A stretch of 59,766 nucleotides of DNA, counting the filler, from Sphacelaria rigidula (lineage: Eukaryota): NCBI GenBank assembly GCA_964200075.2. It is 3 parts of 3 records of this genome, joined end to end, with 100 filler letters (N's around TTAATTAATTAA, not from the genome) between each part and the next. Parts side by side here need not be neighbours in the genome. Positions count along the whole stretch, not along the records: positions 1 to 19,874 come from CAXNAA020000598.1; 2 more parts are not named here. The stretch is one strand, 5' to 3'. The notes beneath the pieces were generated by a model. The model saw nothing but the letters and a program-made list of their open reading frames with translations. It had not been told where the DNA came from and did not search any database. A program made the translations under genes and the position numbers. How positions within the stretch are numbered: position 1 is the stretch's first letter; each line of letters opens with the position of its first letter. Of this stretch, positions 2,101-23,300 are shown one piece after another.

Positions 2101-4628
2101 CATCCATCTTTCAACGTGTGCAAATGCGCTACATCCATCGCTGCAGCACCATCGTGCAGGGTTTCAGTCTTTTTTTTTTTAGTATGCAATGTGCTACGTT
2201 ACATGTTCGTATTGCATCCTTGCTGGTTTACAGCCCTGATGAAGTAGCTTTCGGAGAATCAACGACAGGGAGCACGGAATTCAGTAAATAACATCATGCC
2301 GGGAAGGGCTTGAGTGATCGGATAGCTACATAATTTTTCAACATGTCCCCTTTTAGGCCGGGGAGCAGCGGCGGCGGGGAGGGGGGGTGCTCCCCAACGA
2401 GACAGTAATTGGAGCCCTACCTACCCTATTGTTTTCGTAGTGAAGACTGTCGGGATGAAAAAATAAGGAAACTTCAAACTAGCGTCTGTGCCGTCTGTCG
2501 GCAGGCGCAATTTGCAATCTTCAATCTCCTGTCACTGCGGCCAGCTGCGGCGTGGGAATCGTTAACCCTTTCGATCGCCGGGGCAGGTCATCTGGGCCAC
2601 GCAGTAAATTTTCGGGTGACAGTGATGCCGTTTCAACATTTGACTTGCTCGGGTGGGGTCAGTTCAAAAATAGTGATCGAACGGGAGCAATTACACGCTC
2701 ACACCCGAGCGCTGCTTCCTATATGAAGAGTCCTGGAACTCACCGATAAAATCCGATACACGCACACATCATGTACTGAACCGTAATATTATCGAGTTGA
2801 CCGTCAACAGCCACGCGTACTCCCTCAACCCCCCCCCCCCCCCCCGCAACACCGTAAAGGCAGACAGACACCCATGTATCTTAAAGCTGGAGCGAAAGAG
2901 AGGGCGATAGAAACTTGTCCTCAACCACTGACACCACTACAACACTAAGGCCGCAGTCCAGTATGAAGCGTTCGCTGTGCAGGGCGTACGACAGTGGATG
3001 TACCGTAAACAAGAGTAAGGCGGGGTACATACAGCAGCACTACCAGCAAATTCTTGCCTTCTTGTCGGGCTGTGCGGAGAGTTACAGTACAGCAGTATTT
3101 TAGTACGACGCTGCAAATTCTTCATCGGTTGGAATCGTTTCAGAACAATTTTGTTTGTCCGTACTACTACTTGTACGATCGATGTTGTGTGATAATATGA
3201 TACGTAAAGTCACTTGTGTATCAATCGGTAACGGCGATGGGGTGTCGCAAGCGTGAAGGGGTAAACATAATAACGTTTGAAAGCTTTGTCTACACCACAA
3301 AACCCGAACATGCCTTCGTTCAGAGACACTCTAAAATTGAACTCTCGATGTTGTTTCAGGTTGGAGGGTGTCCCAATTTTTTTTCGTCCTTTATTTCTCA
3401 ATGTTTCGGGGTTCCTGTGCGGGGTGCCGGCATTTCTTATTTTGTCGAGTCCTGGAGACATGCTGGGTGGGTCGAAGTCTACTGGGACACACAAGGAACA
3501 GGGCGTGCCTGTAGCCAACCAAATCAGCCTACGATTTTTTGCCTGAGCGAGGCCAGGACGGTAAGTACTTGCTTCCTCGTTCCTCGTTACTCGAAAGGCC
3601 CAAAGCGGCAATGGCGAGGGCAGGTGTACCGTCAGTACATCGTAAACAGTCTCTGCGACACTGCTGTATTTGACTGAATTTAGTATAAGGGCGGAACAAT
3701 GGCTGGCAATTGTTGAAAAAACATAACCGAAAAAGAGAAGAGCAAATTGCAACGAAAGAAAAAATAGCAAGCGCACCTGTTGTCGTCTCGGAAGAAGCCC
3801 TTACAGCAGCAGATGAAAAGCTTATGGGACATGGCTGATAACCTATGCCCACCCCCTGCCTTTGCCTTCACAAAGCCTTTGTGCTTTCTGCCCTCCTGCC
3901 ACTGCGTCAATACGCTCGCACCCGCTTATTACTTCCTTATTTTTTCTCTGCAGTATTTGGCCTCGTACCATCAGACCCGCGGTCAGTCTTCCTGAATGCC
4001 AAGTAACCACAATACCACAATGATTAGAACAGAAACAGGGGATGGGCAGTAGATCAAGCACACAGTACAGCATTCTTCGAATGACAAGGACCTCCAGAAG
4101 TCGAGATGGCGTCTACTTGATATATTATCGTGACCTTTGTAGTAATGGAAAATGATCAGAAATGAATGTCTATGATATCCGTAGGCGTTTCAATATCCCT
4201 CACGATCCAAGAGGCGTTCGAGCTGTAGATTCGTTTTTGCTTCTACTCACAGGGCGTTACTTTGCGCGGTCTACTTGGTGCCGTCCTTCCCCGTACAACG
4301 TGACACGTAGCGTTGTTTTCGGTTGGCGTGTGATGACTTTCAAGTTGCACCGGGGTGTGTGTGCGTTGTAGCCACCTCATCTCAAGGTTGCAGTGGTGCA
4401 GAGTAAATAGTATTGACGTTGTAGTGCGACTGCTAGGCCTCGCCAGTCGACGAAGTAGGTAATCGCCCAATAAAAGTAATAGCCGTACTTAGCAACCTCT
4501 AGGCTCCACATCGGACCTACCACAGATTTTATAGGATTCAGATACTGCTCATTTTGGGGTACTAACAGAACTCTGTTATTGTTGTACAGGACCAACGCCG
4601 TAAGCACGTGTGTGTCGAATTCATCACG

Positions 4629-7600
4629 ATGGTCATGGCCAATGTCCGACGACAAACCTCGTCGGTATTCCATCGCTCACGGTTGTGGGTTGCTCTAGTG
4701 TGCATCCTCCTGCTGCAGACGTGGTCCGGCGAGAAGACGTTAGTCGAGGCGGCGTGTCCTAACCACTGCAGCGGACACGGTACGTGTGGGTCTGGCGCCA
4801 CTTGTACCTGCAACGACGGCTGGGATTTTGCGCCGGACTGTTCCTTGCGTGAGTGCCACTGTTGACGGTAGTTGAGTGCCGCACGGTAGAGCTTTGAAGC
4901 ACCATGACACATTTTTGGGCGTTGTACCGTGGCGACCTAGAGATAGATATGGAACATCAACTATTTGGGTTGAGGCTCGAACTCTTATTTCAGGAGAAAA
5001 CACCAGCGCAAGTCATCATCATTTTTCTCGTCATGATTTTCTGTTTTTCTGGGCTGCCGGATCCGGGTTGTTCACGAGTATCAATTATCTTCTTCTCATC
5101 TCTGGTTTTTCGTTGGTTTGGCCAATTCATTCAATAACCGCGGGAACAAGGTGCCAGAAAGTGGCATTGAACGCGCTAACACGTCGCAGGGGGGAGGGGG
5201 GGGGGGCACGACTCCCCCCCCAGCACACCACCCACCTCTCGACAAATATTTGAAACGGATATTGCATGTATTGTAGCAGAGTTGTTGAGGCAGGTCACTG
5301 GCTTTTTTGGTGACGAATGCAGACTGGTTCACGCTTGTCAACCTATAAACACTCATCCGCAAAACTGCACGCCGTTTTTAGGAGTTAGGCCGTTTCTTCC
5401 GGTTCGTATTGTGTTTGGCTCGCATTTCCCACTTGTAGGATATTTGACAAGGTTTTTGGCCCCCAAACAGGGAAAACCGCCACCACACGTCTTGGACACT
5501 TTGTATCACCCCACCGAGAGGAGCCTAGCCCACTTTTCCGATTCGGTTGGGTCAGAGATTTCGAGAGCGGCCTCTGGACAAAAATACGAGGAAAACATAT
5601 ATTGCACAGTCTGTAGGCATTTTCTATTAATCCTCTGAAATTGTTGCAAAATAAAATTTCAAACGCTCCCATAAGAGTTGGCCTTAGACCCTGGATTTCT
5701 TCACAATTCTGCTTCTCGGGGGTCCCAGGGTATTGGGGAAAATTCGGATCCCGTCGGACCTCCGAAAAATGGTACAAAAGCCAAAAAACTTGGAAAAAAA
5801 ACTCGCGCATCGAAAGATGCGTAGTGACCCATCGCACATTTTTGAAAAGTTTCAGGGTCTAGCTCCTTAAAACGGCGTGAAGTTTTGTGCGTTTGTGCGA
5901 TGACGTGAGCTTTAAACGTTCAAAGTCCGAACTAGTTGGTTTTAGTATGAAAACGTCTATTTATTATGTGGTTTTCGAATTTCCCGACGAAACTTTGTAC
6001 ATATGTTCCTTCGACTACCCCAGGGTGAATCAGTTCATTTTCATTATTTTGAGGTATTCTGTATCGCTTTCCGAGGGTGACCCCCAGAAGCCGCTAGAGA
6101 ACGGCTAAACTTCGTAACATTGGCAAGAATACAGCTTTTCTCTTTGGAACATCAATAACAGTTAAACTACGGAACTGCCAAGTTTGAGTGCGATCTGAGC
6201 TTTTCTGCGACCAACTGAAGGTAAACCGTCACGAGGCTCCCTGGATCTTTCGTGCGCATCAACAGTGGAAATGAGACGACACCAAAACCCCAAATCACCG
6301 AAACTCCACGGTTTTGAGTCTGATTCGACTCCGTAGTAACCGCTTTCATTTTTTTTCCCCCGTTGGATTCCCGAGCTGATGGCGGTTACTAAGATTTGAA
6401 GCATGTGGAGGCTGGGTGAAAATTGGGCTTCGAATTATCATTTTCGATTTCAGAACAATTTGAAGGGCGCTATTTGATGGAGGCACCTTTTCGCCCTTAG
6501 CGCTACCACTACGGCCTTAGACACAAATCCCGCCATGTCACGCTCTTCAGCTGTCTATGGCGGTCAGTGTGACATCATGTGTGCGACTATTGGGTAGGTA
6601 TTGCAAAAGGCATTCGCTAGTGACATAATTTTGGGTGGTAACCGTGAACCAACCTGTAATTATGCCGCAAAGCTCTCGTACTTGACTTCCCGGTATGTTT
6701 ATTCGTCTTGGTACTGGACAGTAGATATTGCTGGGCGGTAGTTCTCAGTTTTTACATAGTATCAAGCAGCGAACAACAGTAGTAGCTGTCACTCGAAGCA
6801 ATTGGTCGCAACGAAGTGTTGAATGCTATCCTCCCATGCTGACCGCATCTATTAGTAGAAGGACGGCATACCGATCCCATGTCTCGAGGGGGGCGGCGGG
6901 GGGGGCGGGGGGGTGTACTCATGATCTATTGCATGCCATAGTCATAAGACCATTGACCTCGGAACCCTACGAAGCGGGGACGGAGCACGCCGGGTTTTCG
7001 CCGGGCCAGGCTCGCACCCAATCGCCATGCGCGAAGCGCCGTAATGTGTTCCGCGAGTCGCATGAAGGGTGAGCTGCATCCTGGTAAGATTGTTCGGCCC
7101 GAAGCCTACGGATTTTCTTGCATTATTATTACAGTGTACAATGAGTTGCTTCATTTCCTGGAATCGCCACCTCCAGAGACAGCCACGGCTTAGACACTGC
7201 CTCATGGGTGTCCCACCATTTAAACACTACGTAGTATGATCATTCGATAATTCCCTTTGTGCGGAGTTGAGGTTCTCCCACGCCGCACAACATGATCTAG
7301 CTCGACCACCATCATGATTACTGCAAACAAAACGCAAGGGCGTAAAAAAACCCCGATAACCTGGTTGCCTTGCTAACGCAGTAAGTGCGTGTTTTACAGC
7401 GTCATTGCCAACCGACGATAACCGCATAGGGGATCCGTCCCTACAAACCTGGGACGGAGACGGAGCACGTCGGGGTTTCGCCGGACCAAGCTAAATATCT
7501 CGGGGGGGGGGCTGCTCATCTGTTGCTTGCCTTAGTCATTTGACCGTTGGGTACGCATTCCTCTCGAGGCGGAGTACTATTTCTACTTCTATCAGAGACA

Positions 7601-10600
7601 AGAGACACCTCCACAATCTGTGTGGCCATCACGTTTTTCTCCCGGGGGGGCGGGGGGGGGTCGGTCTCTTCAGGAACATGCTCGAAAGGATTGGCGTGGG
7701 CAGACAAGGCGTACTCCACGGACACTGCGCACAGCGAGGTCGAATGCTCGAATGCAGGGAATTGCAATCGACAAACCGGAATATGCGCCTGCTTCACACC
7801 ATTCACCGGAGCAGCTTGCCAGCGAGGTACGAAAATTGAAGAGTAAGGCGAACGTAGTGCATGTGCAATACCCAGCACCGAGGCCATAAAAGTATTATCG
7901 TGAAATCCTGCCCATTTTGTGGCTTCCTATACTGTAGCATCGTGGTGTTCGGCCCCGCTCTTACCGTAGCCTTTCTCGCACCCGTCGGCCGACTGCTTTT
8001 TCTTCCAGCCGAGGGTTCGGAATCATTGTTATCGGTGAAGGGACAGCGACTGGGTAAAAAGACCACGGTCACGCACATATCGCGTATCACAGCTGTACAG
8101 TACAATTATTCGTACACCAGCCGGAGCCAGTAGTATGAGGTGATATCTCACAATTTTGTGCTGTGCAGTGTAGTAGCCCCGGATCCCGCCAACAGTATTA
8201 GTACACGCACGCGGTCAGTACACAATAATGTCTGAACAGCTGAAGAGCGTAGCGTATTTGGTGGGAGGTGTGGGTGTGGTAGGTAGCGCGTGCGGTTGTG
8301 GTTGGTTGGTGTTTCGATTGTGGGTCGGAGGTCTGGAGAACCCCCGCGTAACCCTCAAAGCCAGACGGGCAGGACGAAAACACGTCGACACACACACACA
8401 AGCAAAACGCATGGAACCGCAGCAGTGAGCTTTTCCTTCCCACGAAACCCTGCATTCATCGACGGCTGTTTGCAGCTGAACCTTAGGCAGACACGGCTAC
8501 AAAAAAGAGGAACCCGCCGCGTCGACCACCTTGTAGTGAAATTCTACTGGTCGAAGTTGCAAAACGCTGAAGCTCGAAAGAAATTCTGTGAGGCGCCCGG
8601 ACGGCTACCTGGCGGCCATCTATGCCCACACGATCGCCATCCTTTAGGAACCGGCGGAATTGTCTGTGTTGACAATGATGGTACTTTCTCCACCCCGAAA
8701 AATAGATAAACGGCAAGTTCATGCTAAACAAAATTAGGCCTGTGTCGTACATTTCACATGCCACCACAAGGCGTCAAATCAGCAGCGCAAGCGCCAATAT
8801 GATCATGATACTCCCCGAGGATGGCAAAATCGTCTACATGCAGTGCAGCCGTGCTGTGTGCAGTATCGAGGCTGGGGCTGCGCATACCCCAGAGTGCATG
8901 AAACAATCCCGAGGAACTGTAGGAGGTATCCCGGGGAATTTGTAGGTATTATCCCGAGGAATCGTAGATATCAACAGGATGGCCTCAACATGTCACAACT
9001 AACTTTGCATAAAGAATATCCTTCGGTTCACACACGTTTGGTGCGGCATATAAGCCATCATACCCCGCCCCCCACTCCTCCCGGCCTCCTGTCTCGTCCC
9101 CGCTTCGGCCTTGCTCCCTGCTCCTTCTTCGGTGGGATAAAACCACCCCCCCCGCTTTTCAATTGCAGTGCGCTGCCCCGAAGACTGTTCGGGTCACGGT
9201 ACCTGTATGACGATAGGAGATCTTTCTCGATTTTACGGGCCGGATTACGTCCAGCCAGGCACGGGGGGGGACGGGATAGGGCCATCCTACGGGAACTGGG
9301 ATGTTTATTCCACGACGGCGTGTTTCTGTGATCAGGGTCACTTCGGCGCAGACTGTTCCAAACGTGAGACGGGGGATATTCCCATGGAAAAAGTAGCCTC
9401 GGTACCAGTAGTTTAGAGCTATGGTCTGATGACTTGAAGCAGTTCGTTCCACTGCATGCCATGTCATCCCACCCAGCTCACAGATTACATGACTCGCTTG
9501 CAACAATATTTTCTTCTTGTCGACAAAAGCGTTCTATTAACCGTGCCAGGGATGTGTCCGAAGGATGATGACCCGGTAACGGTGAACCAGGACGACCGAA
9601 CCATCGGTGTAAGCGTTGGGACAGACGGGGGCTCGTCCATCAGCGGGACACTCACTTTCACCTTCAACGGGTAAGTGAGCGCAGTGAGCTAGCTGCCTTA
9701 GCATTTTTTGGTGGACGTTATTTTGTTATTCAAGGTAAGACAAGGAGTAATTGTCGCCTCATGAGGCGTATTTTACACCGGGCAGTGTACGCTGGATAAC
9801 CTCGCGCACTTGGGGTGTCGCGTAAGCACGACGCAGATAAAGCGCTTTCTACGGGTGCATCTTGCGCGAAGCTCAAATGACTCGCACTCGGCAAGTCGAC
9901 GGCGTAAGTGGTTGCATGGCAGCGCAGGACGGCCCACTTGAGGACCTGGCTACATATCACTCCACAAGGCTGCATCCTTTTTGTTCTCCGCATCACCCAT
10001 CGTCAACTTTTACCGAGCAGTCATTCCACACGATTAAGCACGGACTTCTTTGGCAGCTCTAGCGCAGATACGCTGTGTGAGGAAGCATTTGAAAGTCTCG
10101 ACAACGTGGAGGACGCAGTGTGCTACACTGAACCGCTCCCGAACGGTGAGCAAGAAAAAGGATGGTCAATAAATAGATCGCCTGGGGTAGTACCGTATAA
10201 GTAGAAAAGGATTCGGTACCGCTATTTTTCTGTACCGGAAACAACAAACTTTGAACGATATGACTTCATTCTCGCGACGAACACAGAGGGCGAGATTGGG
10301 AAGTGAGGGGGGTGAGGAAGGCTGTGGAGAGGCGGAGAGGAGGGGATGGAGGAGGGGTGCCACTCGTGTTTCATTTCACGTCATGATGTAGGGAGGTGCT
10401 GTAGTTCAATGGTTCAGTGCACAACGAGTTGAAATTTCTACACACACATACACACACAAGCGCGCGCACAAATACGTACACACGTCACTTTCTTGCACAA
10501 ACTGTACTCGTATCGTGACTTTACCTATCCGTCCCCCGCGAGACCATGCTTTTAAACCCCATCGTAGCTTGTTCTACTGCTTTCACTATTCTCATACCGA

Positions 10601-12675
10601 ACCCTTGTACTGTAGTGGGAAAGTCTGCCACAGATATAGCCACATCTATACTTTGCGATAGTTTTTTCAGCCCATTAACGTACAGGCTGTGCTCAGCCGA
10701 GACGTGACGTGAATGTAGTTGACAGCGCGTCATGTTCAACATATTACGGGGGAACATTGTTAGTACGAGTGAACACATGAACGGACGTAACTCGAGCGTT
10801 CATGGATCGATTTCAACAAACTATAACTTTGGATGAACCGCAATGTGCCCGCGGTCAGCGGCCAGCAACAACAAGTTAAATAATGAAAATATGCACACAA
10901 GAGTTTAAGGCCCATTTCGTGGATTTTTCCTGTCGGCGTCCCTCCAATCCTGTCTATTACTTTTGTAATACGCCTACTGTTAATAACAATTTTTCCCCGT
11001 AATAGAAAGAGGCACAATTGCATCTCGTATGCCTTAAACCTCGGCCAACATATTCACGAGAGGATGGAGGAAAAGAGGAGAGGACGGAGAAAAAGAGGAG
11101 AGGATGGGCGAAAGAGCGATTCCGAGCGGTTGTTTCACATGTAGTTAATTGCGGTGTGTTCGGGAACTAATTAGTGTTTTCCTTTTTCATCTTTGGATGG
11201 TTAGCTCTGACAACTCGAGCATCTGCTTGAAATAACGGAAATTATAGTCTTACGTCAGTGGTTGAAGTGAAAAAATCATGGCGCAAATACCTTAACTCAA
11301 CGTAGTGAATGGGGAGGAGACTCATATCTTTCGTGCCTCGACTGGTTGAAGACTGATGGCTGAACACACGTCCTCCTAGGAATAGATCTTTCCTTGGGGA
11401 GGGGGTGGGTGGGGCGCACGGGTAATATATGGACTGTAGTAACCATCTCTGCACAGGGTTCAAGATAAGGATGAGTGAAAGCCAGATCGCGGTCGAATCC
11501 GCGATCGAGCTCACGGCCGGATATGCGTTGGGTTTTCGCTGGCGACACTTTCTACAGTAGCCCCCCCCCCCCAAAAGTGGCTGGTTTGGGGAGGCAAAAT
11601 TTTCACGTAAATCGCAATGCAAAAAGCCGAGCACAACGAGCAGCTGGGAATTCCCACGCTTGGGTTCATTCTCGCCGATGTCTCCCATATGAGGCGCTTC
11701 ATGCAGGCTGAACCCAACCATCAGGCGCTGTATGACCGTTTTTTTCGTGACACTTTTGGGCTGGTTTTGGGGGGGGCTGTCGTAGAAAGTGTCTGGCGAG
11801 GATTGTCTGACAAATACGATCAATACACACATATACCAGTACCTTTGCGGGAGCAAAGTCAAGGGATTGCGCAGGATTAAACGATGTCGACGACGTGGGC
11901 TCCCTCCTCTACGACGGCAGACGACAGAAGCACACCACCTGGAGTTCCGATATCAAAACACTAGCGTCTACCACCTCTGCGTGTTTGCAGTGTTGCACAA
12001 AAAAGCCATTTTTATCACCTCTCGATTTGACCCTGTAAAGTTCTTATTATAACGACACCGACTCATTCATGTGTAGTCCCTTTCTTGAAGTCGACATCAT
12101 TGTATCGTTCATTTGTCAGGCGAAAACCTCCGTCGAACATTCATTTCACGATCAAAAAAGGGTGAAGTTATCGTGTACCGGATATCAACCATTTCCCGCC
12201 GACGGACGCTTGTTTCGCAGGTGGCCTAGAAATGAACGTGTCCTTCGTCAGTTTTCCCATGGTGCCGGCGGAGAACAACTTGTTTCATCACACCGGAAAC
12301 CCGGACCTGTCCGCCTTCACGTGTGACGTCAGCGCGGTCGATCCTTCGGGATCCGTGGACTGCAACATCACAGACCTAGTGAACACCAACGTAAAAGGTG
12401 TGTGTCATACTCCAATGTGTGCGTGTGTGTGTGCGTGTGTGTGTGCGTGTGTGTGAGAGAGGGAGGGAGGGAGGGAGAGAGAACCGGCGGAATCACTGTT
12501 GAAATTAGTGGAACACTGATGAAAGATGTGAAGCATTTTTTTGGGAACAAAATGCGCGGTCGGACAGTACTAGCATGTTCAACTTGAAACGTTAGCCTGT
12601 CATCAATCCTACTAGAGTACACGATCTATCAAATGCTAGCTTAGAGGTGTTTTTATTGTTTTCATGATTGTCCAC

Positions 12676-12719
<44 letters not shown>

Positions 12720-14184
12720 ACTGCTACTGCGCGAACACAGCACAATAGAAGTAGCGCATCTGCTCTGGAAGCATCGAGCTATGCACGTTTTTGGCGTCGT
12801 CACGATCAACACCGAGAAAGTGGAATGCGACGTCAATGAGGATATCACCAAGCTCTATTATAGACATCCAGTTGAGAGCACTTTTCAAACGCAACAAAAG
12901 TGCTCTTGAAGTGTGATGCAGCGTTAATAACAGCGAGTGCCAAACCGCGTGTGATTAGTGCGGGGACTGGAGTGGTGTGGACCACTGCCGCGTTTGTTAC
13001 TCCACTACACTTTAGCGGTGGAGCTGGACTGTCTGTGAGCCTCTTGTGGGTTCGCTTCATCCGGAAAAAACATGGATCCACAATGTAGCACAGCGTATCC
13101 CGACGAGAATCGGCGACTGGCGTTTTCCCATTTCAACGCAAAACGAAAATATATACAGGACGGATGTTTCTTTTTATTTTGAGGAAATAGTAAATGGACA
13201 CACACGCGCGGACACGCAAACACGCACACCCTGCAGACTTCTACGGTGCAGCAGCAACAGCATATTATCAAGGGGAGGAACTTGATCGCATTGGGCGACA
13301 CAGCCATCCCTCGAGCCTCTACTTATGCCCTCAATGTTTTCATTTTCGTTTTTTCAGAGTACGAGTTTTGCGGGCGCCGAGGGCTGTGCGATTTCGCAAC
13401 GGGGCTGTGCGAGTGTCTAGATGGATGGACGGGAGGGGCATGCAGCGTCGAGAGCTATGTGTACAGCACGAGCAACGCCATCCCCGGCATCAGTCTCTCT
13501 GCTTCCGGCCTTGACTACACAGGAAACGTTTTGGAGGCATCCACAGAGAAGAGGGTGAGAAAAAAAGTGTGAATAATGAATTCAAATTCCCCTTTGGCCG
13601 CCGGGCTAAGAACACGAGATAAAAAGTGGTCCAGGTGACGCGATAGAAGGACAAAATAGGACGGGACGCCACATTTTGGTCAAAGGGAACAAAAAAGCCG
13701 AACGACTTGAAAATGAGATGTTTGGGTTTGGGTTGGTACGGTTATACAAGACGGATATTCGGCTGGTATCGGGAGAGAAGAAAGTGAGAGAACGCGTTAC
13801 AATATATCTGGGACTTGTACTGTACAAGCAATCTGCGTCTTACTCGTGCGGTATTGCAAAGTTACTGGGTGTGTGAGATCGTGTACCCGTTTTTATTTTA
13901 TCAAACTAGAAACATCCGGCGTGCTCTTCTGCTGCTGTTCGGAGGGACTGAAAAGTGGTCCGCCTCGTTTTGCGGTGTCTGACCCTCGACGCCTTGACAA
14001 ACGTTTTTCAAATGTACTGTTGTTGATCAGGTTCTCTGGCGTTCGAAAAAGATACGCGTATCTTGAAATCACCCGCCCTGCAGTATACCTTACGTCCCAT
14101 ACTTGCCTTCAAGCCGCGTTTACTGGTGATGTAGATGTCGTCGCTCTTCACTGAAACCCGCCCCCCCCCCCCCCCCCCCCCCCC

Positions 14185-14236
<52 letters not shown>

Positions 14237-14492
14237 CGCGTCTCCGCCCTTCCTTCTCCCCACCCAAAACCGTGAACTTTTTTGTCCACAGGCCGCTCCT
14301 GATTTCAACTTTTTGCAGTTTACGGCGGAGAACGTGGTGGTTTTCAAGGTGCGAGGAGATGGATTCATCGAGATCGAAGAGCTCGCGATTGGAGAGGGGT
14401 GAGTCGTCAGTTCAGAACACGCTCGAATTTTTCTGGTCGTCTAGATTTGTACAATCCGCGAGATTTTTTTCTCGTCGAAACGTGTCGAGGTC

Positions 14493-14526
<34 letters not shown>

Positions 14527-17500
14527 CTTCACATTACGCCTTCCGCGGTCACAGGCTAACTACCCCATGCTAGGGTAAAATAAAAATCATAAAGTAAATT
14601 GGACCCAGAAACAATTCACACAGACGCGACACAAAATAAACGAAAACAATATAAAAAATACTAGAAAAAAGAAGAAAAAAGAGGAAAAGAAAAAGGACTA
14701 CTGCTAGCCCTCTAAGTTCTCATGTCATATGCGACCATTCGGGCTACTGGAGGCAGGACCCATAGGCCCACTCAACACGCGAGGCCAAACAGGAAGGGAG
14801 CCAAACTCGAGAGCCACGATCAGCAGCCAAAGCGATAGGAGTCGTAAGGTTCTAACCTTGCACCTCTAGAGGGACAGCTATGCGTACCAATATACTAGGC
14901 ATAACCGGAAGAGCACCACATAACAACACACACCACCTCGGGGGGAGGGGTGCCTTGGAGTCAGCAGTTAGTAGAAAAAAAATACAAATACAAGGGGAGA
15001 TGATGGGGGTCCTGTTACTTCCGCCATCTGAACTGTATTACTTTCTTCACGCGTTTGCATACATACGCTACTTTATACCCGGAGGCGTCAAAATGTCCAG
15101 CGCATACGGTATTTCCGTTGTCTCGCAGGGGGGGGGGGGTGGAGTGGGAAAAATAGCTGCTTCATTCTCAGCAAACTGGCGGCTTCGCGGCAAATGCAAC
15201 TGGTGCTCATATGCTGTCAGATTTCAGCTCACGCATTCCAAGCGCACTGTGCGGTATTATGGTAGAAGTGGAAAATTGTGGAATCGGCGTCCTCGCAGAT
15301 TATTGGTGGTCTCAAAATTATGTGCACTAGGTCTATGAAACCCAAACACAACACATGGAATTGAGAAAAGATCGGATGCTCCAGACACTAGAGTTAAAGG
15401 GATCCATAGGTGCCTTGACACCCGTGAAAATGTACAAACGTAATGATCTACGACTGCTATGTACTACAGGGGCCTTTCAGTGGAGAACGGGGGCATTCAA
15501 GTCGACGACGGAGGGCTCATGGTATCCGACGGCGGCGCGACCATATCTAATTCTTCGGCGAGCGATGATATTTTGGCCCTCTCCGCGACGAGTGAGTGAA
15601 GGCGGGGTATAGTTGAAGAATATCGTTTCTTTCCGCGAAGCTTCCTGTTCGGGCACTTCAAAACCTGGTGCCATTGTTTGACAGTCGCCCGATAGAATGG
15701 CGCGCCCACGTGAACATCGATAGAATAGAGTAGTGCATCACATCATACACGGCACAAGGAATCGTGCCCCGAAATGATGTGGGTAATATCAGATCTATCA
15801 GCACACATCGGACGTATATCGATGAGCACGCACATGAGCCACTTCCTCGTGATTCATTAATGAGAATTGGGAACACCCAGTATCACACTGGATTGGCTAC
15901 GTTTTTGCGAGCAACGCTGCCAACCGTTCCTCGTTTCTGTTGTCGATTTGCATTGTGTGCATGTGATACCCTCCGGTGGATATTTGCGGCGGCTATGTCC
16001 CACCAAAAGGAATACACGTTGTGTGTGTCATACTCCAATGTGTGTGTGTGTGTGCGCGCGCGCGTGTGTGTGTATGTGTGAAAACATTCGTCGGATTTCC
16101 AGCGTGTGACCGTACTGTAGAACCGGCTTTGACCTATAAGAACAGAAATGTGGAGTCTCATCCGCATCTTTCCCGGCATATCTAATGCCAAAGAGGCTAC
16201 TACCGTCACGTCGCTGTAGCGCGTGGTGCATCCAGGCGCGTCACGTGTGCCGGACATGAAGCGATGCTTGGGTATCTCTCGGCATACAGCTTCCGGTGGG
16301 CGTGTGAGTTTGTCGAGATATTTATCCTTACATGTCACCCGTGCTCTCTAGCATTGGCATCAGTGCCGGCCCCGAACCTAAGGAAGACCGGGTTTCACCC
16401 GCGAAGCAAAAAACACAACTTCATGGTGTATGCTGAGGGTTGTTGTGAACAATCTTTTCGACAGATTGAGTGTCCAACATCTGATGGAGAGGGGGCTTTT
16501 CAGCCCATTTTTACTGTACCTGGAAAAGAAGCGCAGATGGTGCCGATTCCATAAACGGGCTCCATTTGTGGAATCGGCACCATTTTTACTTGAAAAATTC
16601 CTGCGTGACCCAGTTAACCGACTCTGGCGGTCAAAGCTAACGTTCCGAAGAGTAAGTCGTTGGAATTATAACCCGAAGTCAAACAAACACCCATATTCCA
16701 TCATTTGAAATCGTGACGGCTTCATACGTGACACTCGCATTCAATGCATTATTAATAGTCGGAACGACACTTTTTGGAATGTGCCAAGTTGTGCGAGGTA
16801 TAATCGGAACCTGCTGAAAGTACAACGGCGCGTTCATGAGGGGAATGTTGTGATGGGTGATGTCGCCATTCCTCTTCTTCTCAATTTTCGTTCAATGAAA
16901 CGTATCGTTCCGATTAATACTCGTATAGCTAGTGACTTCCACGTTTATAAGTGTTCCGCAGAGGTCACTCGTATAAACTCTTTGACCGCTGGGGTAGGTG
17001 ATCTGTTGAATCGGCACCATTTACACACCTGAAATTCAGACATTTTAGTGTTTCACCCGTGGACGGAACAGATGAACGCAACGTCTTTCTGTCGAAAGTC
17101 CACATTCAATCAAATGGTCGACACTCAATCTCGCGAAAAGGTTGTACAGTTCTACGAGGGGCGCCACGCCGGTGAACACGGGATCTTACAAATTGGGGAT
17201 GGATCTTTCATGGGGGATGAGAAACCCGGAGAAATAAAATCTTCGTATCCACACCAAATCGTCGAAATATGGTTCCATTTCTTCACCTACTGATAGTTAT
17301 TGACAACTACTACGTGCCGCAGAAGTTTGGATTTCGATCACCGAAATGTTGGGGTCCCAGGTGAAAAACCGATTTCGGAACCATTTTGGTGTCGGTTCGG
17401 ACACCCGAAATTCCCCGGAATTGTTTTTTCACCTAGGATCCCAACATTTCGGCGATCGGAATCCAAATTTCTATGGCATGTAGCAGTTGTCAATAGCTAT

Positions 17501-19874
17501 CAGTAGGTGAAGAAATGGAACCATATTTCGACGATTTGGTGTGGNNNNNNNNNNTCATCCCCAACAAAAGATCCATCCCCAATTTGTAAGATCCCGTGTT
17601 GGTGGCGGTGGGTCATCGCAAGTCGTTGCGAGTAGCTTGTCATATTTTGGGAACGTGCTTCGATGATCCCTAGCGAAGTAACAATCCTGTCGCACACAAT
17701 GCGTATAACTCCACAAAGATACTGCAAGCGTCAGAAACGGGAAGCGCCAAACGACGGAACTTCGAGAATGCGTGAGCTAACGCCCCAACCCGAGAACCCC
17801 AGACACTGCTGCGAACGCACTGCTACAATGGTGCAACGCTGTCTTTTGCTTAAATCAGGCACAGGATTTGTGGGCAACGTCATCTCGCTTGGGGCAGCGA
17901 CAACTTCGTCGACGTCATACAATCATATCGAGGCGCAGGATGATTCGTCCGTGGTGTTTTCAGTTCGGGGTGATGGCCAAGTAAGTACTGTTTGGGAAAC
18001 GCAGGGACGAAGATGTGCACCACCCATTCTTCAATTTTTCAAAAGTCGAAACACTACACGTTTCCGAAGCTGTATACATCTCGATGACGTGGCCGGTAGG
18101 TGCTTGCACATGCTTCGCAATCCCTACCTTCCGTCGCTATGTGTTTCAAGTTGAGGTGCTCGGACCATCCCACTGGAAGGGTTTTAGCCGAAACTTCATG
18201 CGGCAACGATCTTTCGCGTCGCCACCCGAAAATAGAGCAAAAGCGCGAACTTGCGTAGGATCAACGCCGCGATGGCTCCCCCCCAAATCGGCCCCAAAAC
18301 TGTGACGAAAAAAGTGGGCATACAGCGCATGGTAGCTGGTTTCAGACTGCAACAAGCGCCTCATTTGGGCATATCGGCGAGAACGATTCCAAGCGCGTAG
18401 GAGTTCCCATGCTCGGCTTTTGCCATTTTGATTCACGAGTAGATTTTGCCTCCTCAAACGAGCCAGGTTTCTGGGGGGGGGGGGGGATAGTCGGCGTTAC
18501 AGGTGCAACGGTTTCACGGTCGGGCAGGGGGGGTCTCCTCGTAACATGNNNNNNNNNNGTTGTGCCCTTGCTCGGTTTTTCCTATTTGGTTCCCGGAGGG
18601 GATTTTCCCCCCCCAAACGAGCGGGGTTGGGGGGGGGGGGGGGGGTATTGCGGCATCACTCGTAGCGTGATGGACGGTACAGGCAGCGTAGGTCACCATG
18701 TAACATGTATTGTTTCTCAGACGTTAACGGAATAGTGTTGTTTTATTTCAATTCCGCTCCCTCCACGCGACGACGTTGGTCTTCCGCTAACATGGTCGTG
18801 CCATGTACTCTACGGTCGCGTGCTGCACGCTGCCGTTTCGTGTGGCCTTCACTAAATATCCTAATTGGGTGCTATTTGATCGTCCTGCACATGTTACTGT
18901 TTCCAGACGACTATTGCGGACGGAGATCTCATCATCACTTTGGGGGACGAGACAATATCCGCGGGCGATCTATTTGTCTCAAATGGGTCGATCACAGCGA
19001 AAAACGGAACTTTAACCATAGCTGGTATCACTAGTTCCGCTGTGGTAACCGTGGAAGATGACATACATTGCACTGGAAATATCACGGCTGCAACGGGTCT
19101 GCTAACGATCGAAGGAATAACGAGCTCAGCAACAGTAGAGGTAACCTCTGGAGGCGCACAGATCGTCGGAACCCTGACCGTGGTATCAGGAGGTGCGATC
19201 ATATCTGCTGGGGGATTGAACATACAAGCGGGCGGAGAAACGATAGATAACGGTGACCTCGACATTCTTAACGGCAATCTTGGTGTGAGTGGGACCACTA
19301 CATCTACTGGCCTGATCACGGCCACCGCAGGAATCACCTCCGCCGGCGACATCACCACCACCAGCTCCGGCAACCTACTTGTGGACGGGACCACCACGTC
19401 GACTGGTCTGCTCACCGCCTCAAACAACCTGCAGGTCGACGGAACCACAACTTCCACTGGCTTGATCACGGCCACGGCAGGAATCACCTCCGCCGGCGAC
19501 ATCACCACCACCAGCTCCGGCAACCTACTCGTGGATGGCACCACCACCTCTACTGGCCTGCTCACAGCCTCAAACAACCTGCAGGTCGATGGGACCACAA
19601 CCTCCACTGGCTTGCTCACAGCCTCAGACAACCTGCAGGTCGACGGAACCACCACGTCTACTGGCCTGATCACGGCCACCGCAGGAATCACCTCCGCCGG
19701 CGACATCACCACTACCAGCTCCGGCAACCTACTGGTGGACGGAACCACCACGTCTACTGGCCTGCTCACAGCCTCCGACAACCTGCAGGTCGATGGAACC
19801 ACAACGTCGACTGGCCTGATCACGGCCACCGCAGGAATCACCTCCGCCGGCGACATCACCACCACCAGCTCCGG
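4629..19874 (+). CDS. Secreted mastigoneme-type (Sig1/Ocm-like) EGF protein fused to a Thr/Gly beta-repeat fibre; 3' end lost in assembly gap
   Basis: Manually spliced, all GT-AG and phase-consistent: 4629-4848, 7674-7826, 9169-9363, 9550-9670, 10021-10145, 12221-12397, 13358-13554, 14292-14398, 15470-15591, 17859-17980, 18907->19874. Hydrophobic leader ([11 protein letters not shown]), then [108 protein letters not shown]; then two VFxVRGDG modules and repeats. Family assignment is by motif recognition, not a search. Confidence 0.85.
5360..5887. mobile_element. MITE-like element with ~30-bp imperfect inverted repeats in intron 1
   Basis: CAAAACTGCACGCCGTTTTTAGGAGTTAGGCC (5360-5391) versus GGTCTAGCTCCTTAAAACGGCGTGAAGTTTTG (5856-5887). 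Confidence 0.55.
11561..11776 (+). repeat. Dispersed repeat, copy 1 (intron 5)
   Basis: Homologous to the reverse complement of 18278-18487 (GAGGCAAAAT..AAAAGCCGAGCA..TTCTCGCCGAT..ATGAGGCGCTT..GCGCTGTATG..TTTTTTCGT). Confidence 0.75.
12398..12454 (+). repeat. GTGTGTGTCATACTCCAAT-(GT/GC)n element, copy 1
   Basis: 24-mer GTGTGTGTCATACTCCAATGTGTG is identical at 16021; both copies are followed by GT-rich microsatellite. Confidence 0.8.
12677..12730. repeat. (CTG)n microsatellite, intronic
   Basis: Direct reading of the sequence. Confidence 0.95.
14161..14235. repeat. ~75-nt poly-C tract upstream of the exon 8 acceptor
   Basis: Direct reading; interrupted by one A. Confidence 0.9.
14493..14700 (-). 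mobile_element. 5'-truncated LINE 3' end with (CAA)n tail, antisense in intron 8
   Basis: Minus strand reads T-rich tract..GCCTGTGACCGCGG..AATGTGAAGA(CAA)n, mirroring the 3' end of the RTE at 24420-24665 (T-rich..TGTGACCACGG..AAGTGCGA(CAAT)n). 5' boundary approximate. Confidence 0.5.
16021..16080 (+). repeat. GTGTGTGTCATACTCCAAT-(GT/GC)n element, copy 2
   Basis: Identical 24-mer to the copy at 12398. Confidence 0.8.
17175..17600. repeat. ~425-bp imperfect palindrome (foldback element or hairpin RNA precursor) in intron 9
   Basis: Left arm 17175-17393 is the reverse complement of right arm 17400-17600, with a ~6-nt loop. The ORF track shows the same peptide on both strands. 10 Ns lie in the right arm. 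Confidence 0.9.
18278..18487 (-). repeat. Dispersed repeat, copy 2 (intron 10), inverted relative to copy 1
   Basis: Reverse complement aligns by eye with 11561-11776. Confidence 0.75.
19273..19874 (+). repeat. Coding tandem repeat of 18-aa and 32-aa units (54/96 bp) with a 6-residue period
   Basis: Units [18 protein letters not shown] and (N/D)[31 protein letters not shown]; order 32-18-32-18-18-32-18-32, running into the gap. Confidence 0.95.
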
Positions 19875-19974
19875 NNNNNNNNNNNNNNNNNNNNNNNNNN
19901 NNNNNNNNNNNNNNNNNNTTAATTAATTAANNNNNNNNNNNNNNNNNNNNNNNNNNNNNNNNNNNNNNNNNNNN
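19875..19974. other. Artificial contig spacer N44-TTAATTAATTAA-N44
   Basis: Exactly 100 nt; the central 12-mer has stop codons in all six frames. Confidence 0.95.
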
Positions 19975-20374
19975 ATAAAGGCAAGCGCCGCAGAAGGAAG
20001 GTGGGGAACTAAAAAAGAAAAAAAAAAAACTCCTGTGTGACCCCGGCTGATGCGCTCACATATCCCGAAAGGGGAAGACTAGCGCCCAGAATATATGGAA
20101 CGACAACACACACAGTTTACGTAGTGGGTCATACAGACAGTGCTGACGTCCAGTCTCAACCCTGCAGCTTCGGAGTTCTACCCTAGACGGTGAACCCAAT
20201 CGAATGCCGCAGCTGCATCGTTTTACCCGGCAGTGAGACACTGTCACGGGAAGCACGTTGATGGAGATGAGGCACGTGTGAGTAAGTACCAGATTCGGCG
20301 GACTGGAGATAGCGGTCGACGCGGGATGAGAAGGCTGTAACCTCCCCGCGAGATTAACAAGCGAGGTAAATACC

Positions 20375-23300
20375 GTGATAGACGTGCCAAAGAAAACTCG
20401 GAACAGAAACGAGCTCGTCCGTAAAATTAGAAGGCGGAACACTCCAAAAAGGAGAGCAGAGCAAAGAGAAAGACGCGTGAATATAGAGAAGGCTGAAGCT
20501 AGGACGCGTAGTGGGGAGCTCACAGTGGCTAACTATAACGTCCGTACACTGTCCCTCCCGGGAAAGAACGGAGTTGGCCATGCTGAGATGGTCCTGCAAA
20601 AATGTCAGGCAATCGGATGTGACGTCATCGGCCTACAAGAAACGAGCGGTCCAGGTCGAACGGAATTTTATGGGGCGGTATATTGTGTCTTCTGTTGCGG
20701 GGCGGAGGGGGGCAAGGGAAGGGCTGGCCAACATGGGGTTGAGTTGGCGATCAAGGAGCCGATCATCAGCAAGGCGACGTGAACTCAGGCACTCATCAGC
20801 GCACGCCATGTGTCGACGACTTTCAACTAGCGGGTAAATCAAATGCTGCAACGTTTGTAGTTGCATATGCCCCCACAAACACTCCACAGTCAAGCTAAGA
20901 GATATATGTGTTCTGGGCTGAGTTAGACAGCATTGCGAACCTGTTCATTTGATTAGACGCTAACGCAGGGACTCGGGTACGAACAGGCGAGGAGGACTGT
21001 GAAAGCTTGGGGGCATACGGCCAGGACTCCCGACCCAACGACAGTAACGGCATCTCTCTGACACAACTTGCAGCCAACAACAGGCTTGTCCTGGTCAACA
21101 CGTTCGTTTTCACCCCCAAGGGAATCACCTCGCGTACGTACAATGGTATTGGGGATCGCCCCGCGGACAAAAAACGCATTGATTACATCCTCAGACGGTA
21201 ACGCGGGCTTGTCCGCAATGCCACCGTCCACCTTCACATCCCCAACTCGCTGGACTTTGACCACAACATCGTGTGCGCCTCAGTGCGACTCCTTGGTCGC
21301 TTCGCACACAACAGACCTAGACGAATCCCCATTGGACGTACACCGATCGACAGATGACCATTAATATCTGACCCAGACAGACGTGAGCAGCTCACCCAGC
21401 TCATCATCAGCGAGCTCAAACAAAGTATACCTGGCGAAACAGTTAGTTCACTGGCTATGAACTTTGCCGACGTACTCTTGAGTGCCGCTGAAAAGGTGGT
21501 ACTCCGTCTGACGCGAAAGCCACGTATACCGGGGGGGTTTGAGGATGCTACCATCCGAACAGAGTTCGAACAGCCCTGGAATGAGAGGAAAAGGGCGGGC
21601 TCAACGGTGCGACAGGGACCATCACGAGATTAACCCGCATGGCGCACAATGCGAGCAGCGTGCAAAAAAACTCAAAGTGATCCAGGTTGTGGTGGACAAA
21701 TATATGGATGTGTATGCTAGAGAATTGGAGGAGTATACTCGAGCGGGGAACATGAAAGGATGGTACAGACATGTCAATGGAGGGTGGAGACTGTCTGGAC
21801 GACCAATCGAGAGTGAGCAGTACACTTGAGATGGGACAGCAATACACTGCGGGACAAGAAATTGATCAGTGGGAGATGCGAATGATACTTCTTCACATTG
21901 CTGAATGCCATATCGGCAACTATCGACCAAACCGTCATCGACCAGATTGCACAAAGACCGATAGCGCTACGACTAGGAGACCTGCCAAGCACAAGTGAAC
22001 CTGACGAGGATCTGAGAGCTATGTGGAACGGCAAAGCAACGGGTCCGCATAGTCTGCCTGCTGAACCCCTGGAGGTTGGACTCAACGGGGAGGCGCCGGA
22101 AATTATGTACCACTTCCACAGTATCGTCTCTGCGGTTTGGATATCTGGCGAGGTGCCGCAGGAATGGAAAGATGTCACTATCAAAGTGCTGCACAAAGAA
22201 ATAAAGGACCGAGTGTGGCACCTATACAGCAATGGTACGGTATGGGTTGCATTTTTCGTGTATGGGTCTCTTTTTCGTAGGAGCTCAAATATATGGGGCT
22301 TACTGTGCAACCCAAATCTCCGGGGGGCGGACCCCTAGAGACATGGCGTTTGCACGCAGGGGCCTCTCTTTCGTGAATTAGCATTATTTTCAGTCTTTTT
22401 CAATAAAAGTGATGCCGATTGTCAAAATGATCCATCCATCACCCCGAGCAGTCCCGAGAAACGTTTTCACTAAAAAAGTGCAACCCCTTCCGTAGGCATT
22501 TCACTTGTGGCACATGCTGCTAAAGCTCTCCTCAAAATCGTAGCCAACAGGCTCGGTAATTTCTGTGAGGAAACAGATGTCTTCCCGGAAGAGCAGTACG
22601 GATTTAGGCGCCAACGATCGACCACCGACATGATGTTCGTAGTACACCGACTTCAGGAGTTGGGATGGGCGAGCAGCGTCCCACTAAACACGTGCTTTAT
22701 CGATCCGCAGAACGCCTGCGATTCCATAGACAGCACGCTCCTGTGGGAAGTCCTTGCTGGGTTCGAAGTCCCGCCGCGAATGATCACGATCATCCGTATG
22801 TTTCACGACGGCATGCGAGCTCGGGTACAGCTAGATGGTGGCGAACTATCAGCGTGCTTCCACGTCTACCAGGGACTCAGGCAAAGTTGCGTTTCGTCCC
22901 CAGTGTTGTTCAACATCTTCGGAGCAGCCCTGGTGGACGTGATCGTACAGCGGTTCGCGGTGGACCCAGTCATCGTCTCAGACTTGGTTATAGTGTATGA
23001 TGCGCCAAAAGTTAACGGTGGTGAACCCGTTGAAGAGACGCCGCTGGAAAAGGCGCAACGCGCGGTGGGGGCAATGCTTGATACGGACGACGCCGGCATA
23101 GCCTCGAGGATCTCAGGGGGCCTTGCACGAATGATGGTCATGGTAGTGGTGAACTGCCCGGAATTCGGCCTGATGGTCTCCGAGAGCAAGACGAGGCAAT
23201 AGTCCATGCGCCTTTGGTCAGTACCCAGACTCACGGAGGCCGCCCTGCACATCGAAGCTGCCGGTCAAGGGTATAAGCAGCCGGGGAAGTTCATCTACCA

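Follow-up and report, generated by a model that had tools for sequence, protein, structure and literature searches.

A Sphacelaria rigidula member of a tailed branch of the stramenopile mastigoneme family, with a predicted trimeric fibre

What might a protein that joins a mastigoneme-type head to a long repeat fibre be doing in a stramenopile? The question is raised by a locus of Sphacelaria rigidula (assembly GCA_964200075.2, contig CAXNAA020000598.1) in the first part of the 59,766-nucleotide stretch of DNA analysed here (the window), for which a preliminary description had proposed a filament or adhesin subunit of flagellar hairs. We searched for exon chains with GT or GC donors and AG acceptors lying at most 15 bases from each exon block, and exactly one chain, of 11 exons, matched a deposited 797-aa partial S. 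rigidula protein (P0001) letter for letter. Its exons 2-10 have the coordinates given in Table 1, exon 1 of the chain spans 4740-4848 and exon 11 spans 18907-19871, and all ten introns are of the GT..AG type. The deposited model begins only at 4740, while the first in-frame ATG of the open frame lies at 4629; this start adds a leader with a basic beginning and a hydrophobic core (a 14-residue stretch). At the other end, the reading frame remains open at 19874, the last base ahead of a run of N. A complete orthologue from Ascophyllum (P0008, 1218 aa) was collinear with all 11 exon blocks in tblastn, and its residues past about 954 had no match in the window. From 19875 on, the Sphacelaria gene is lost in an assembly gap.

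Table 1. Features of the tailed mastigoneme-family locus, in window positions.
Feature	Position	Strand	Evidence
Exon 1: start codon, hydrophobic leader, first EGF-like unit (CPNHCSGHG...)	4629..4848	+	first ATG; donor 4848 of unique chain; Pfam EGF_Teneurin 25.1 bits
Exon 2: second EGF-like unit (AWADK...AH..ECSNAG)	7674..7826	+	Pfam, tblastn, unique chain
Exon 3: third EGF-like unit with insert (CSGHG...NWD...DCSKR)	9169..9363	+	Pfam, tblastn, unique chain
Exon 4: CPKDDDP and start of spacer	9550..9670	+	tblastn, unique chain
Exon 5: spacer	10021..10145	+	tblastn, unique chain
Exon 6: spacer	12221..12397	+	tblastn, unique chain
Exon 7: fourth EGF-like unit (14-residue motif), end of head, start of neck	13358..13554	+	Pfam, tblastn, unique chain
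Exon 8: neck, first F.VRGDG hairpin module	14292..14398	+	tblastn, unique chain, monomer model
Exon 9: neck, GG-rich short strands	15470..15591	+	tblastn, unique chain
Exon 10: neck, second F.VRGDG hairpin module	17859..17980	+	tblastn, unique chain, monomer model
Exon 11: Thr/Gly/Ser-rich beta-repeat fibre, frame open at contig end	18907..19874	+	unique chain, monomer model
Young tandem repeats within exon 11: units of 54, 150 and 204 bp (18, 50 and 68 aa), 83-90% matches	19294..19874	+	
Two runs of 44 N	19875..19974	.	read as an assembly gap removing the fibre remainder and the expected C-terminal domain

The head motifs quoted in the preliminary description were all found, in the order given there and in one spliced frame: CPNHCSGHG in exon 1, a 23-residue motif in exon 2, CPEDCSGHG...NWD... 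with a further 13-residue motif across exons 3-4, the spacer in exons 4-6, and the 14-residue motif of the fourth EGF unit in exon 7. Pfam likewise assigned EGF-type units to the translations of exons 1, 2, 3 and 7, confirming four Cys-rich EGF-like units with a spacer before the fourth, and across an alignment of 32 sequences the Cys columns varied hardly or not at all. A head HMM covered residues 2-328 of P0001. OCM5, a 368-aa subunit of the Ochromonas tubular mastigoneme whose structure is solved (PDB 9ufe), aligned through its residues 17-364 with residues 4-325 of P0001 (E 7.7e-43), which bears out the assignment to the mastigoneme type across the whole four-unit module; the five remaining 9ufe chains matched at E 1e-38 to 3e-26, so that all six proteins of that structure match the head. 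Judged by this full-length homology to shaft subunits, the head belongs to the stramenopile mastigoneme protein family. Several relatives are named 'tenascin' in databases, as would suit a generic tenascin- or teneurin-like EGF protein, but in P0008 the teneurin model EGF_TEN reached only 40.8 bits against a Pfam cut-off of 65, no fibronectin or fibrinogen domains were found by Pfam, and the OCM5 match speaks against that reading.

Compared with its relatives, the Sphacelaria protein differs in what follows the head. The Ochromonas single-module proteins (OCM5, and a 'Tubular mastigoneme protein' of 366 aa matching at E 1.2e-38) have the same four-EGF module and spacer and align end to end, and a 359-aa 'tubular mastigoneme protein' (P0250) is likewise similar, at 32% identity. 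In OCM5 the solved chain stops at the fourth EGF unit. The statement that Ocm proteins end soon after the last EGF unit therefore holds for the two 9ufe chains of 366 and 368 aa, whose alignments stop 4-5 residues short of the chain ends, but not for the family at large, in which many members carry double heads and reach 650-780 aa. These double-head members, such as Ectocarpus P0174 (CBJ28087.1), share the module and the lineage range with the tailed protein, yet they consist of two tandem heads, had no fibre or S74 domain among those scanned, and fall into separate clades. Sig1-like and PnMas1-like proteins are probably among them; PnMas1-3 (PPTG_02441, PPTG_03648, PPTG_07238), Esi0033_0091 and Esi0116_0079 could not be tied to any retrieved protein, and the PnMas1 antibody peptide occurred in none of the 178 retrieved proteins. 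Unlike the Ochromonas proteins, P0001 adds at least 469 residues after the fourth unit and branches separately in the tree. Its build, one module plus a tail, is a structural variant inside a family whose usual build is one module or tandem modules alone.

The tail amounts to 469 residues in P0001, a lower bound as the contig ends inside the repeats, and the earlier figure of more than 450 aa after the head is thus correct. Its first part, a neck over exons 7-10, was conserved throughout the tailed clade in the 32-sequence alignment, including the VRGDG motifs of its two hairpin modules. The repeat units in the exon 11 protein are 18 and 50 aa long. In a monomer AlphaFold model of the window product, regular strands of 3-4 residues recurred every ~6 residues, with pLDDT 70-84 over residues 620-797 and a mean of 67.8 over all 797 residues; these short strands, with the trimer model of the orthologue given below, agree with the tail having been described as a fibre. 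Foldseek with the whole 797-aa model returned no match at E 0.001 or better, and 9ufe, absent from its results, may postdate the library. Atlas look-alikes of the tail were phage S74 clusters (0.92), which gave nothing beyond Pfam.

The chain of the Ascophyllum orthologue goes further and includes an intramolecular-chaperone domain, Peptidase_S74, which scored 63.5 bits (Pfam cut-off 22). This domain matches 6f45, a long tail fibre of a phage (E 1e-7), as well as the myelin regulatory factor MYRF (PDB 7dc3, E 4.9e-5). A coiled coil follows the domain in the orthologues. The motif SDRRLK, examined in the orthologues, was kept in 20 of 20 sequences, as it was in each of the 18 rows of alignment A1. 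The lysine five residues past the serine of this motif was counted together with the cleavage serine, on what we take to be its role. As described in the available part of a study of T5 pb1, the conserved serine is the self-cleavage residue and the pb1 chaperone domain is trimeric (PMC4690869). No S74 domain was found in the window itself, because the contig ends inside the repeats; from the orthologues, we infer that the Sphacelaria copy would end in an S74 domain and a coiled coil. Pfam gave no S74 domain for seven clade members of more than 760 aa, which may be either truncated gene models or true variants. When the 156-aa S74 fragment P0189 was used as a phmmer query, 29,722 proteins were retrieved at E up to 0.001; the mastigoneme head was present in none of the 149 newly retrieved proteins among the best 150 of these matches, and the ten that were scanned had S74 only, one with a Bacteroidota-type secretion tail. 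The S74 domain is so short and so widely spread that no donor can be named.

The distribution of this architecture was followed by scanning 193 proteins. The S74 domain occurred in 24 of them, 23 with exactly one head and one being the 156-aa fragment, and in no double-head protein of this set. All 19 S74 rows fell inside one clade comprising 39 of 177 head domains (FastTree support 100), and when single-head proteins were added, the tailed clade comprised 35 of 80 rows (SH-aLRT 99). Its named members are brown algae, Parmales, a pelagophyte, chrysophytes and oomycetes; among the matches listed (120 + 120), all organism names shown were stramenopile, most matches being nameless. On these trees and domain scans, the form with head, tail and S74 makes up a clade of its own, well supported, within the mastigoneme family, and the tailed form is no one-off fusion but an old clade common to ochrophytes and oomycetes. 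The locus is the Sphacelaria copy of this conserved tailed branch of the stramenopile mastigoneme family. In almost all brown-alga assemblies, and in many of oomycetes, the predicted gene breaks off at the repeats, so that present annotations hide its true build. In the literature, we found no paper describing the tailed clade and none joining mastigonemes to endosialidase; for beta-helix, only a reference-list citation of mastigonemes was found.

The homotrimer modelling proposed in the preliminary description was run on the C-terminus of the Ascophyllum orthologue. Three copies of P0008 residues 940-1218 gave a score of 0.87, against 0.07 for the best of three controls, with a partner pLDDT of 89; the calibrating mark for this score had been reached by 21 of 30 proteins solved as same-chain pairs and by none of 23 whose solved form is a single chain, with two copies rather than three, and the protein modelled is that of Ascophyllum, not the window product. 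The trimer runs shared at least 98% of contacts, and the predicted contacts covered nearly all of residues 948-1060 with a +6/7 register between chains, as in a triple beta-helix. Solved S74 trimers that the model remembers may account for part of this result. The 18-aa repeat corresponds to three sides of six residues, an arithmetic that fits the solved triple helix of TLP-12, a protist extracellular fibril. According to the accessible portion of the preprint, that fibril is a glycosylated triple beta-helix with six residues per side, and its candidate proteins likewise finish with an S74 domain (bioRxiv 10.1101/2025.09.30.679562).

Similar assemblies exist in other systems. The orthologues share with phage fibres and tailspikes (T5 pb1, K1F endosialidase, the S16 long tail fibre 6f45) the C-terminal S74 domain with its serine, the later coiled coil and, as predicted by the model, the preceding trimeric beta fibre. 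The tailed protein is, in contrast, eukaryotic, predicted to be secreted and encoded with introns; the mastigoneme module takes the place of the virion-attachment domain, and no receptor-binding tip domain was recognised in it. MYRF is another eukaryotic use of the same self-cleaving trimerisation domain, but it is a membrane-bound transcription factor, whereas in the tailed orthologues the domain follows a long extracellular fibre. The TLP-12 glycofibril and the Amoebophrya-type candidates, so far as the preprint's available text describes them, share a Ser/Thr-rich triple beta-helix and the same predicted C-terminal domain; they differ in being alveolate, in their 12-residue GSxxS repeats, in protein lengths of ~20,000 aa and in having no mastigoneme head.

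Given the S74 domain of the orthologues, the kept SDRRLK and the orthologue trimer model, the tail is very probably a trimeric fibre bearing three mastigoneme heads, and it is probably glycosylated. Could the tail instead be a single-chain right-handed beta-helix, like filamentous haemagglutinin, with no intertwined trimer? The repeats do fold alone in the monomer model, Fil_haemagg scored 15.2 bits on the window's exon 11 (cut-off 21.5) and a summed 35.1 bits on P0008 with no single stretch above the cut-off, and Foldseek gave weak rows to the secretion domains of FHA, HxuA and EtpA (E 0.2-0.5, probability ~0.1). Against this, the complete clade members end in S74, which is trimeric in the characterised cases covered by the available text of the sources, the trimer model passes with its 6/7-residue inter-chain register throughout the repeats, and the 18-aa period matches the solved triple helix, so that we consider a single-chain helix improbable. 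The architecture, together with its reading as a trimeric fibre, we hold with considerable confidence.

Whether head and tail form one gene was also examined in transcripts. Among runs recorded as RNA, none was found to contain the stretch, and contigs from four runs, one of DNA and three guessed to be RNA, were compared with the locus, giving a depth of 0-35 over the exons. From the runs guessed to be RNA, one contig matched only 9550-9669 (exon 4), with unplaced letters at both ends; one fitted from 9167 (exon 3 acceptor) on, after 53 unplaced letters; and one started in an intron at 15314, its fit ending at the exon 9 donor, 15591. Contigs also extended into introns (12267-12412, 15314-15591 and 15572-15722), and all that the runs guessed to be RNA yielded were scraps, in part unspliced. 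The deposited model is itself a prediction, and no joint spanning exons 7-11 was seen among the joints listed, beyond which there are 154 more; both would be compatible with two adjacent genes misjoined by prediction. Yet a transcriptome-derived ORF marked complete (P0030, 1171 aa) holds the head at 19-341 and S74 at 974-1064 in one frame, head, tail and S74 recur together in many independent assemblies, and the neck that bridges them is conserved across the clade. A misjoined pair of genes, or the generic tenascin-like head considered above, is accordingly the least credible of the alternatives, and we give it very little weight.

We propose that in the ER the C-terminal domain would bring three chains together and template the triple beta-helix, then cut itself off at the SDRRLK serine, by analogy with phage tail fibres and MYRF. 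The mature fibre would be thin, trimeric and probably O-glycosylated, would carry its three mastigoneme heads together at one end and, at the 0.65 A per residue per chain of TLP-12, would be some tens of nm long: an estimated ~20 nm for the 800-aa forms and ~36 nm for Ascophyllum. The heads might dock on or in the shaft lattice, itself made of such modules, and so leave the fibre standing out from the hair as a filament, be it terminal, lateral or basal. Whole hairs measure 0.3-1.5 um in the available text of a preprint (bioRxiv 10.64898/2026.09.11.750887), and the fibre is short in comparison, so that to make a long terminal filament the repeats would have to be far more numerous or the fibres joined end to end. 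Taken as a whole, a tailed mastigoneme-family protein forming a trimeric fibre docked on the hair is the explanation towards which we lean; its attachment to mastigonemes, considered separately, has in our estimate somewhat less than an even chance.

The same trimeric fibre might instead work off the hair, as a secreted or cell-surface adhesion fibre of gametes, spores or zoids, or as a component of matrix or wall, the module being an end-piece that binds something else. We found no localisation or usable expression data linking the tailed protein to flagella, all six proteins in the Ochromonas hair structure are tailless, and the neck holds conserved VRGDG motifs. In the accessible text of the sources, a part for Sig-family proteins in gamete recognition has long been under discussion, and two of three Sig-like genes of Ectocarpus, which may or may not include the tailed gene, were reported silent in gametes (PMC4700764). 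On the other side, the head is closest to shaft subunits over its full length, the VRGDG motif, which the model places in a beta-hairpin, may have a structural role alone, and all organisms named for the clade fall into stramenopile groups. The stramenopile groups holding the tailed clade have hair-bearing swimmers. We therefore regard an off-hair fibre as unlikely, although it is the most serious of the alternatives to a fibre docked on the hair.

A protein with a mastigoneme head and a long thin fibre is a candidate for the unassigned fine filaments of the hairs. We tentatively suggest that the tailed clade supplies a subunit of the fine filaments of the tripartite hair (terminal, and lateral in some groups), and that it might have arisen by an early-stramenopile fusion of a shaft-type head with a phage or viral tail-fibre module carrying a self-cleaving chaperone, with three heads plugging the filament into the shaft lattice and repeat number setting filament length. 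On that reading of filament length, the tandem duplication in exon 11 would be an example of fast repeat-number evolution.

Tripartite hairs reverse flagellar thrust and define a whole eukaryotic supergroup, the stramenopiles. The proteins of the hair shaft are known and solved; we found no paper naming a thin-filament protein, and the tailed clade is a concrete candidate for the thin filaments. According to the available part of an editorial, a knock-out of a mastigoneme gene already exists in Ectocarpus (PMC13109109), which makes the candidate genetically testable. If true, the proposal would add a further eukaryotic use of the phage tail-fibre folding and self-cleavage domain, beside MYRF and the alveolate glycofibril, and here the S74 domain would build an extracellular appendage.

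We reconstructed the gene within the window, whose DNA is eukaryotic in character with long introns. A 61-aa single-exon translation matched, at 100% identity, the deposited 797-aa protein P0001 ('unnamed protein product, partial [Sphacelaria rigidula]'). When GT/GC donors and AG acceptors were allowed up to 15 bases from each exon block, a single 11-exon chain, and no other, reproduced P0001 without a mismatch, each of its ten introns being GT..AG. A leader with a hydrophobic core, absent from the deposited model, is gained when translation begins at the in-frame ATG at 4629. Moreover, the complete Ascophyllum orthologue P0008 (1218 aa) aligned with all 11 exon blocks in order in tblastn against the window. 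The motifs, exon numbering and coordinates of the preliminary description were all correct, and the tail after the head, put there at more than 450 aa, measures 469 aa. The record's last base, 19,874, is the end coordinate of that description and is directly followed by 44 N from 19875.

Several features of the introns were observed alongside (see the table). The simple repeats were skipped as repeats in read placement. Three stretches in introns 1, 5 and 9 had a summed contig depth thousands-fold that of the exons, in the DNA run as well as in those guessed to be RNA, with many joints linking one stretch to another; they look like high-copy dispersed repeats. No sequencing run on record as RNA was found to contain the gene's stretch, and the three runs guessed to be RNA gave only contig scraps on the gene, some stopping at exon borders and others unspliced.

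Positions of motifs, intron features and the retroelement past the assembly gap
Feature	Position	Strand	Remark
(GT)n run	12398-12460		starts at exon 6 donor
CTG/CAG run	12640-12720		intron simple repeat
Long C-rich run	14150-14250		intron simple repeat; poly-proline in one frame
High-depth stretch, intron 1	6552-7577
High-depth stretch, intron 5	11169-12194
High-depth stretch, intron 9	16812-17837
10-N run, intron 9	17545-17554		intron length uncertain
10-N run, intron 10	18549-18558		intron length uncertain
RGD triplet in F.VRGDG motif, first copy	about 14352-14360		neck; P0001 residues 380-382
RGD triplet in F.VRGDG motif, second copy	about 17966-17974		neck; P0001 residues 472-474
LINE-like retroelement	20330-23721	+	directly past assembly gap
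Endonuclease/exonuclease/phosphatase match of the element	20330-20782	+	domain match
Reverse transcriptase of the element	22474-23202	+	domain match

Only generic EGF models matched the head in Pfam, and a teneurin array model stayed below its threshold (40.8 bits, cut-off 65). When compared with the six proteins of the solved Ochromonas tubular mastigoneme (PDB 9ufe), P0001 residues 4-325 aligned with residues 17-364 of the 368-residue OCM5 (E 7.7e-43). The 366-aa 'Tubular mastigoneme protein' followed at E 1.2e-38 and the other four at E 1.6e-28 to 3.3e-26; P0008 gave the same picture. This specific match to solved chains shows the head to be a true mastigoneme module, as the preliminary description had proposed. 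Its statement that Ocm proteins end soon after the last EGF unit holds for the two best-matching chains, OCM5 and the 366-aa protein, which stop right after the fourth unit.

The tail is rich in Thr (19%), Gly (14%) and Ser (12%), and its units of 18 and 50 aa derive from tandem repeats of 54 and 150 bp whose copies match at 83-90%; the assembly breaks within the tail because of these young-looking repeats. The LINE-like element past the gap does not continue the gene, which leaves the scaffold join uninformative on the gene's 3' end. In addition, tblastn with P0008 found no counterpart of the C-terminal end of P0008 in the window. P0008 itself begins with a leader and a single head (28-354), continues through some 700 residues of beta-repeats into a Peptidase_S74 'chaperone of endosialidase' domain (1058-1120; 63.5 bits, over a cut-off of 22) and finishes in a coiled coil. 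Its C-terminus matched the long tail fibre of a phage (6f45, E 1e-7) as well as MYRF (7dc3, E 4.9e-5). The SDRRLK motif at the start of S74 was invariant in 20 of 20 sequences after four near-identical rows were dropped, and in all 18 rows of a further alignment, A1. We take the lysine five residues after its serine to be a partner in self-cleavage. In phage T5 pb1, the conserved serine at the equivalent place is described as performing self-cleavage, and the chaperone domain as a trimer around a coiled coil (PMC4690869).

In the AlphaFold monomer of the window's product (mean pLDDT 67.8; 70-84 over residues 620-797), strands of 3-4 residues recur about every 6 residues, and two hairpin modules lie one at each F.VRGDG motif of the neck. 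Both copies of this motif are conserved in brown algae, and at least one occurs in oomycete, chrysophyte-like and Parmales members; its RGD may have a structural role or be a candidate binding site. The homotrimer modelling suggested in the preliminary description was run on the orthologue: three copies of P0008 940-1218 scored 0.87, whereas the highest of three controls scored 0.07; partner pLDDT was 89, and at least 98% of contacts were common to the runs. Of 30 proteins solved as same-chain pairs, 21 attained that mark, and of 23 solved as single chains none did, a calibration based on two copies, not three. Part of this pass may be model memory, since S74 trimers are already solved. Over residues 948-1060 of the trimer model, nearly every residue contacts another chain in a +6/7 register, the pattern of a triple beta-helix. 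Taken together, we consider it highly probable that the protein has this architecture and forms a trimeric fibre.

We further examined how widely this architecture occurs. Among the best 120 of 672 head-search matches, 17 carried PF13884. Our head HMM and an S74 profile, run over 193 fetched proteins, found S74 in 24, of which 23 had exactly one head and the remaining one was a 156-aa fragment; many family proteins of 650-780 aa were tandem double heads, none with S74 among those scanned. The S74-bearing P0030 (1171 aa), an ORF labelled complete, comes from a transcriptome assembly, and therefore at least one species carries head, fibre and chaperone on a single mRNA. When 177 head domains were analysed with FastTree, all 19 S74 rows grouped inside one 39-row clade (support 100), whose other 20 rows were mostly partial models. 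In an IQ-TREE analysis (quick search, LG+G4) of 80 hand-picked rows, which included added single-head proteins such as P0250 ('tubular mastigoneme protein') and excluded four chosen proteins without a full head, the single-head, double-head and tailed groups separated, the last with 35 rows (SH-aLRT 99). The tailed clade is separate and old. Its named members include brown algae (Sphacelaria, Ascophyllum, several Ectocarpus, Pylaiella, Scytosiphon, Hapterophycus, Discosporangium and Choristocarpus), other ochrophytes (Phaeothamnion, Chrysoparadoxa, Tribonema, Parmales, Chrysophaeum and chrysophytes) and oomycetes (Phytophthora, Saprolegnia, Thraustotheca and Lagenidium).

Most gene models of the clade are truncated, such as the 462-aa P0180 (Ectocarpus siliculosus CBN78882.1). 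Model lengths vary wildly within a genus: P0135 of P. infestans (KAF4037632.1, 'Chaperone of endosialidase') has 3445 aa, with its head at 94-423 and S74 at 3322-3406, and P0129 of P. nicotianae has 734 aa. Repeat collapse or model merging is likely in such models, so true fibre lengths are uncertain. Separately, P0081, P0112, P0128 and others (about 1020-1050 aa) carry additional, incomplete heads between their full modules and represent expanded multi-module forms that resemble Ocm4, a multi-repeat protein.

A known counterpart of the fibre is TLP-12, a pond-water glycofibril described as a triple beta-helix that is heavily O-glycosylated. Each side of the helix takes 6 residues, a chain of 216 residues covers 14 nm, and the alveolate candidate proteins end C-terminally in the same S74 domain (bioRxiv 10.1101/2025.09.30.679562). 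The tailed clade would resemble it in the predicted triple beta-helix with its 6/7-residue register, and its complete members end in the chaperone domain. By analogy, the Sphacelaria fibre would be at least about 21 nm long over the 321 aa of repeats that are visible, that of Ascophyllum about 36 nm, that of the 800-aa chrysophyte-like forms about 20 nm, and that of the long P. infestans model, if real, about 190 nm.

In the published description of the Ochromonas hair (PMC2108286), the shaft has a basal region, between one and three terminal filaments, and two size classes of lateral filament. Against reading the tailed protein simply as a terminal filament, hairs measure 0.3-1.5 um (bioRxiv 10.64898/2026.09.11.750887), which makes the estimated fibres short by comparison, and 9ufe has no tailed member among its six proteins. 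Of the three Sig-like genes in Ectocarpus, two, of which the tailed gene may be one, are reported silent in gametes (PMC4700764), which also counts against it. Attachment of the tailed protein to the flagellar hair is put forward tentatively, at a little under an even chance.

Work on Phytophthora and brown algae takes three mastigoneme proteins, MAS1-3, as established, of which MAS3/PnMas3 may be a member of the tailed clade. In a literature search that covered few subscription journals, no paper joined mastigonemes with endosialidase, and the sole match for mastigonemes with beta-helix had the former in its reference list only. What appears new here is a mastigoneme-family protein with a predicted phage-type, self-cleaving trimeric fibre, conserved across stramenopiles, an architecture hidden by truncated gene models.
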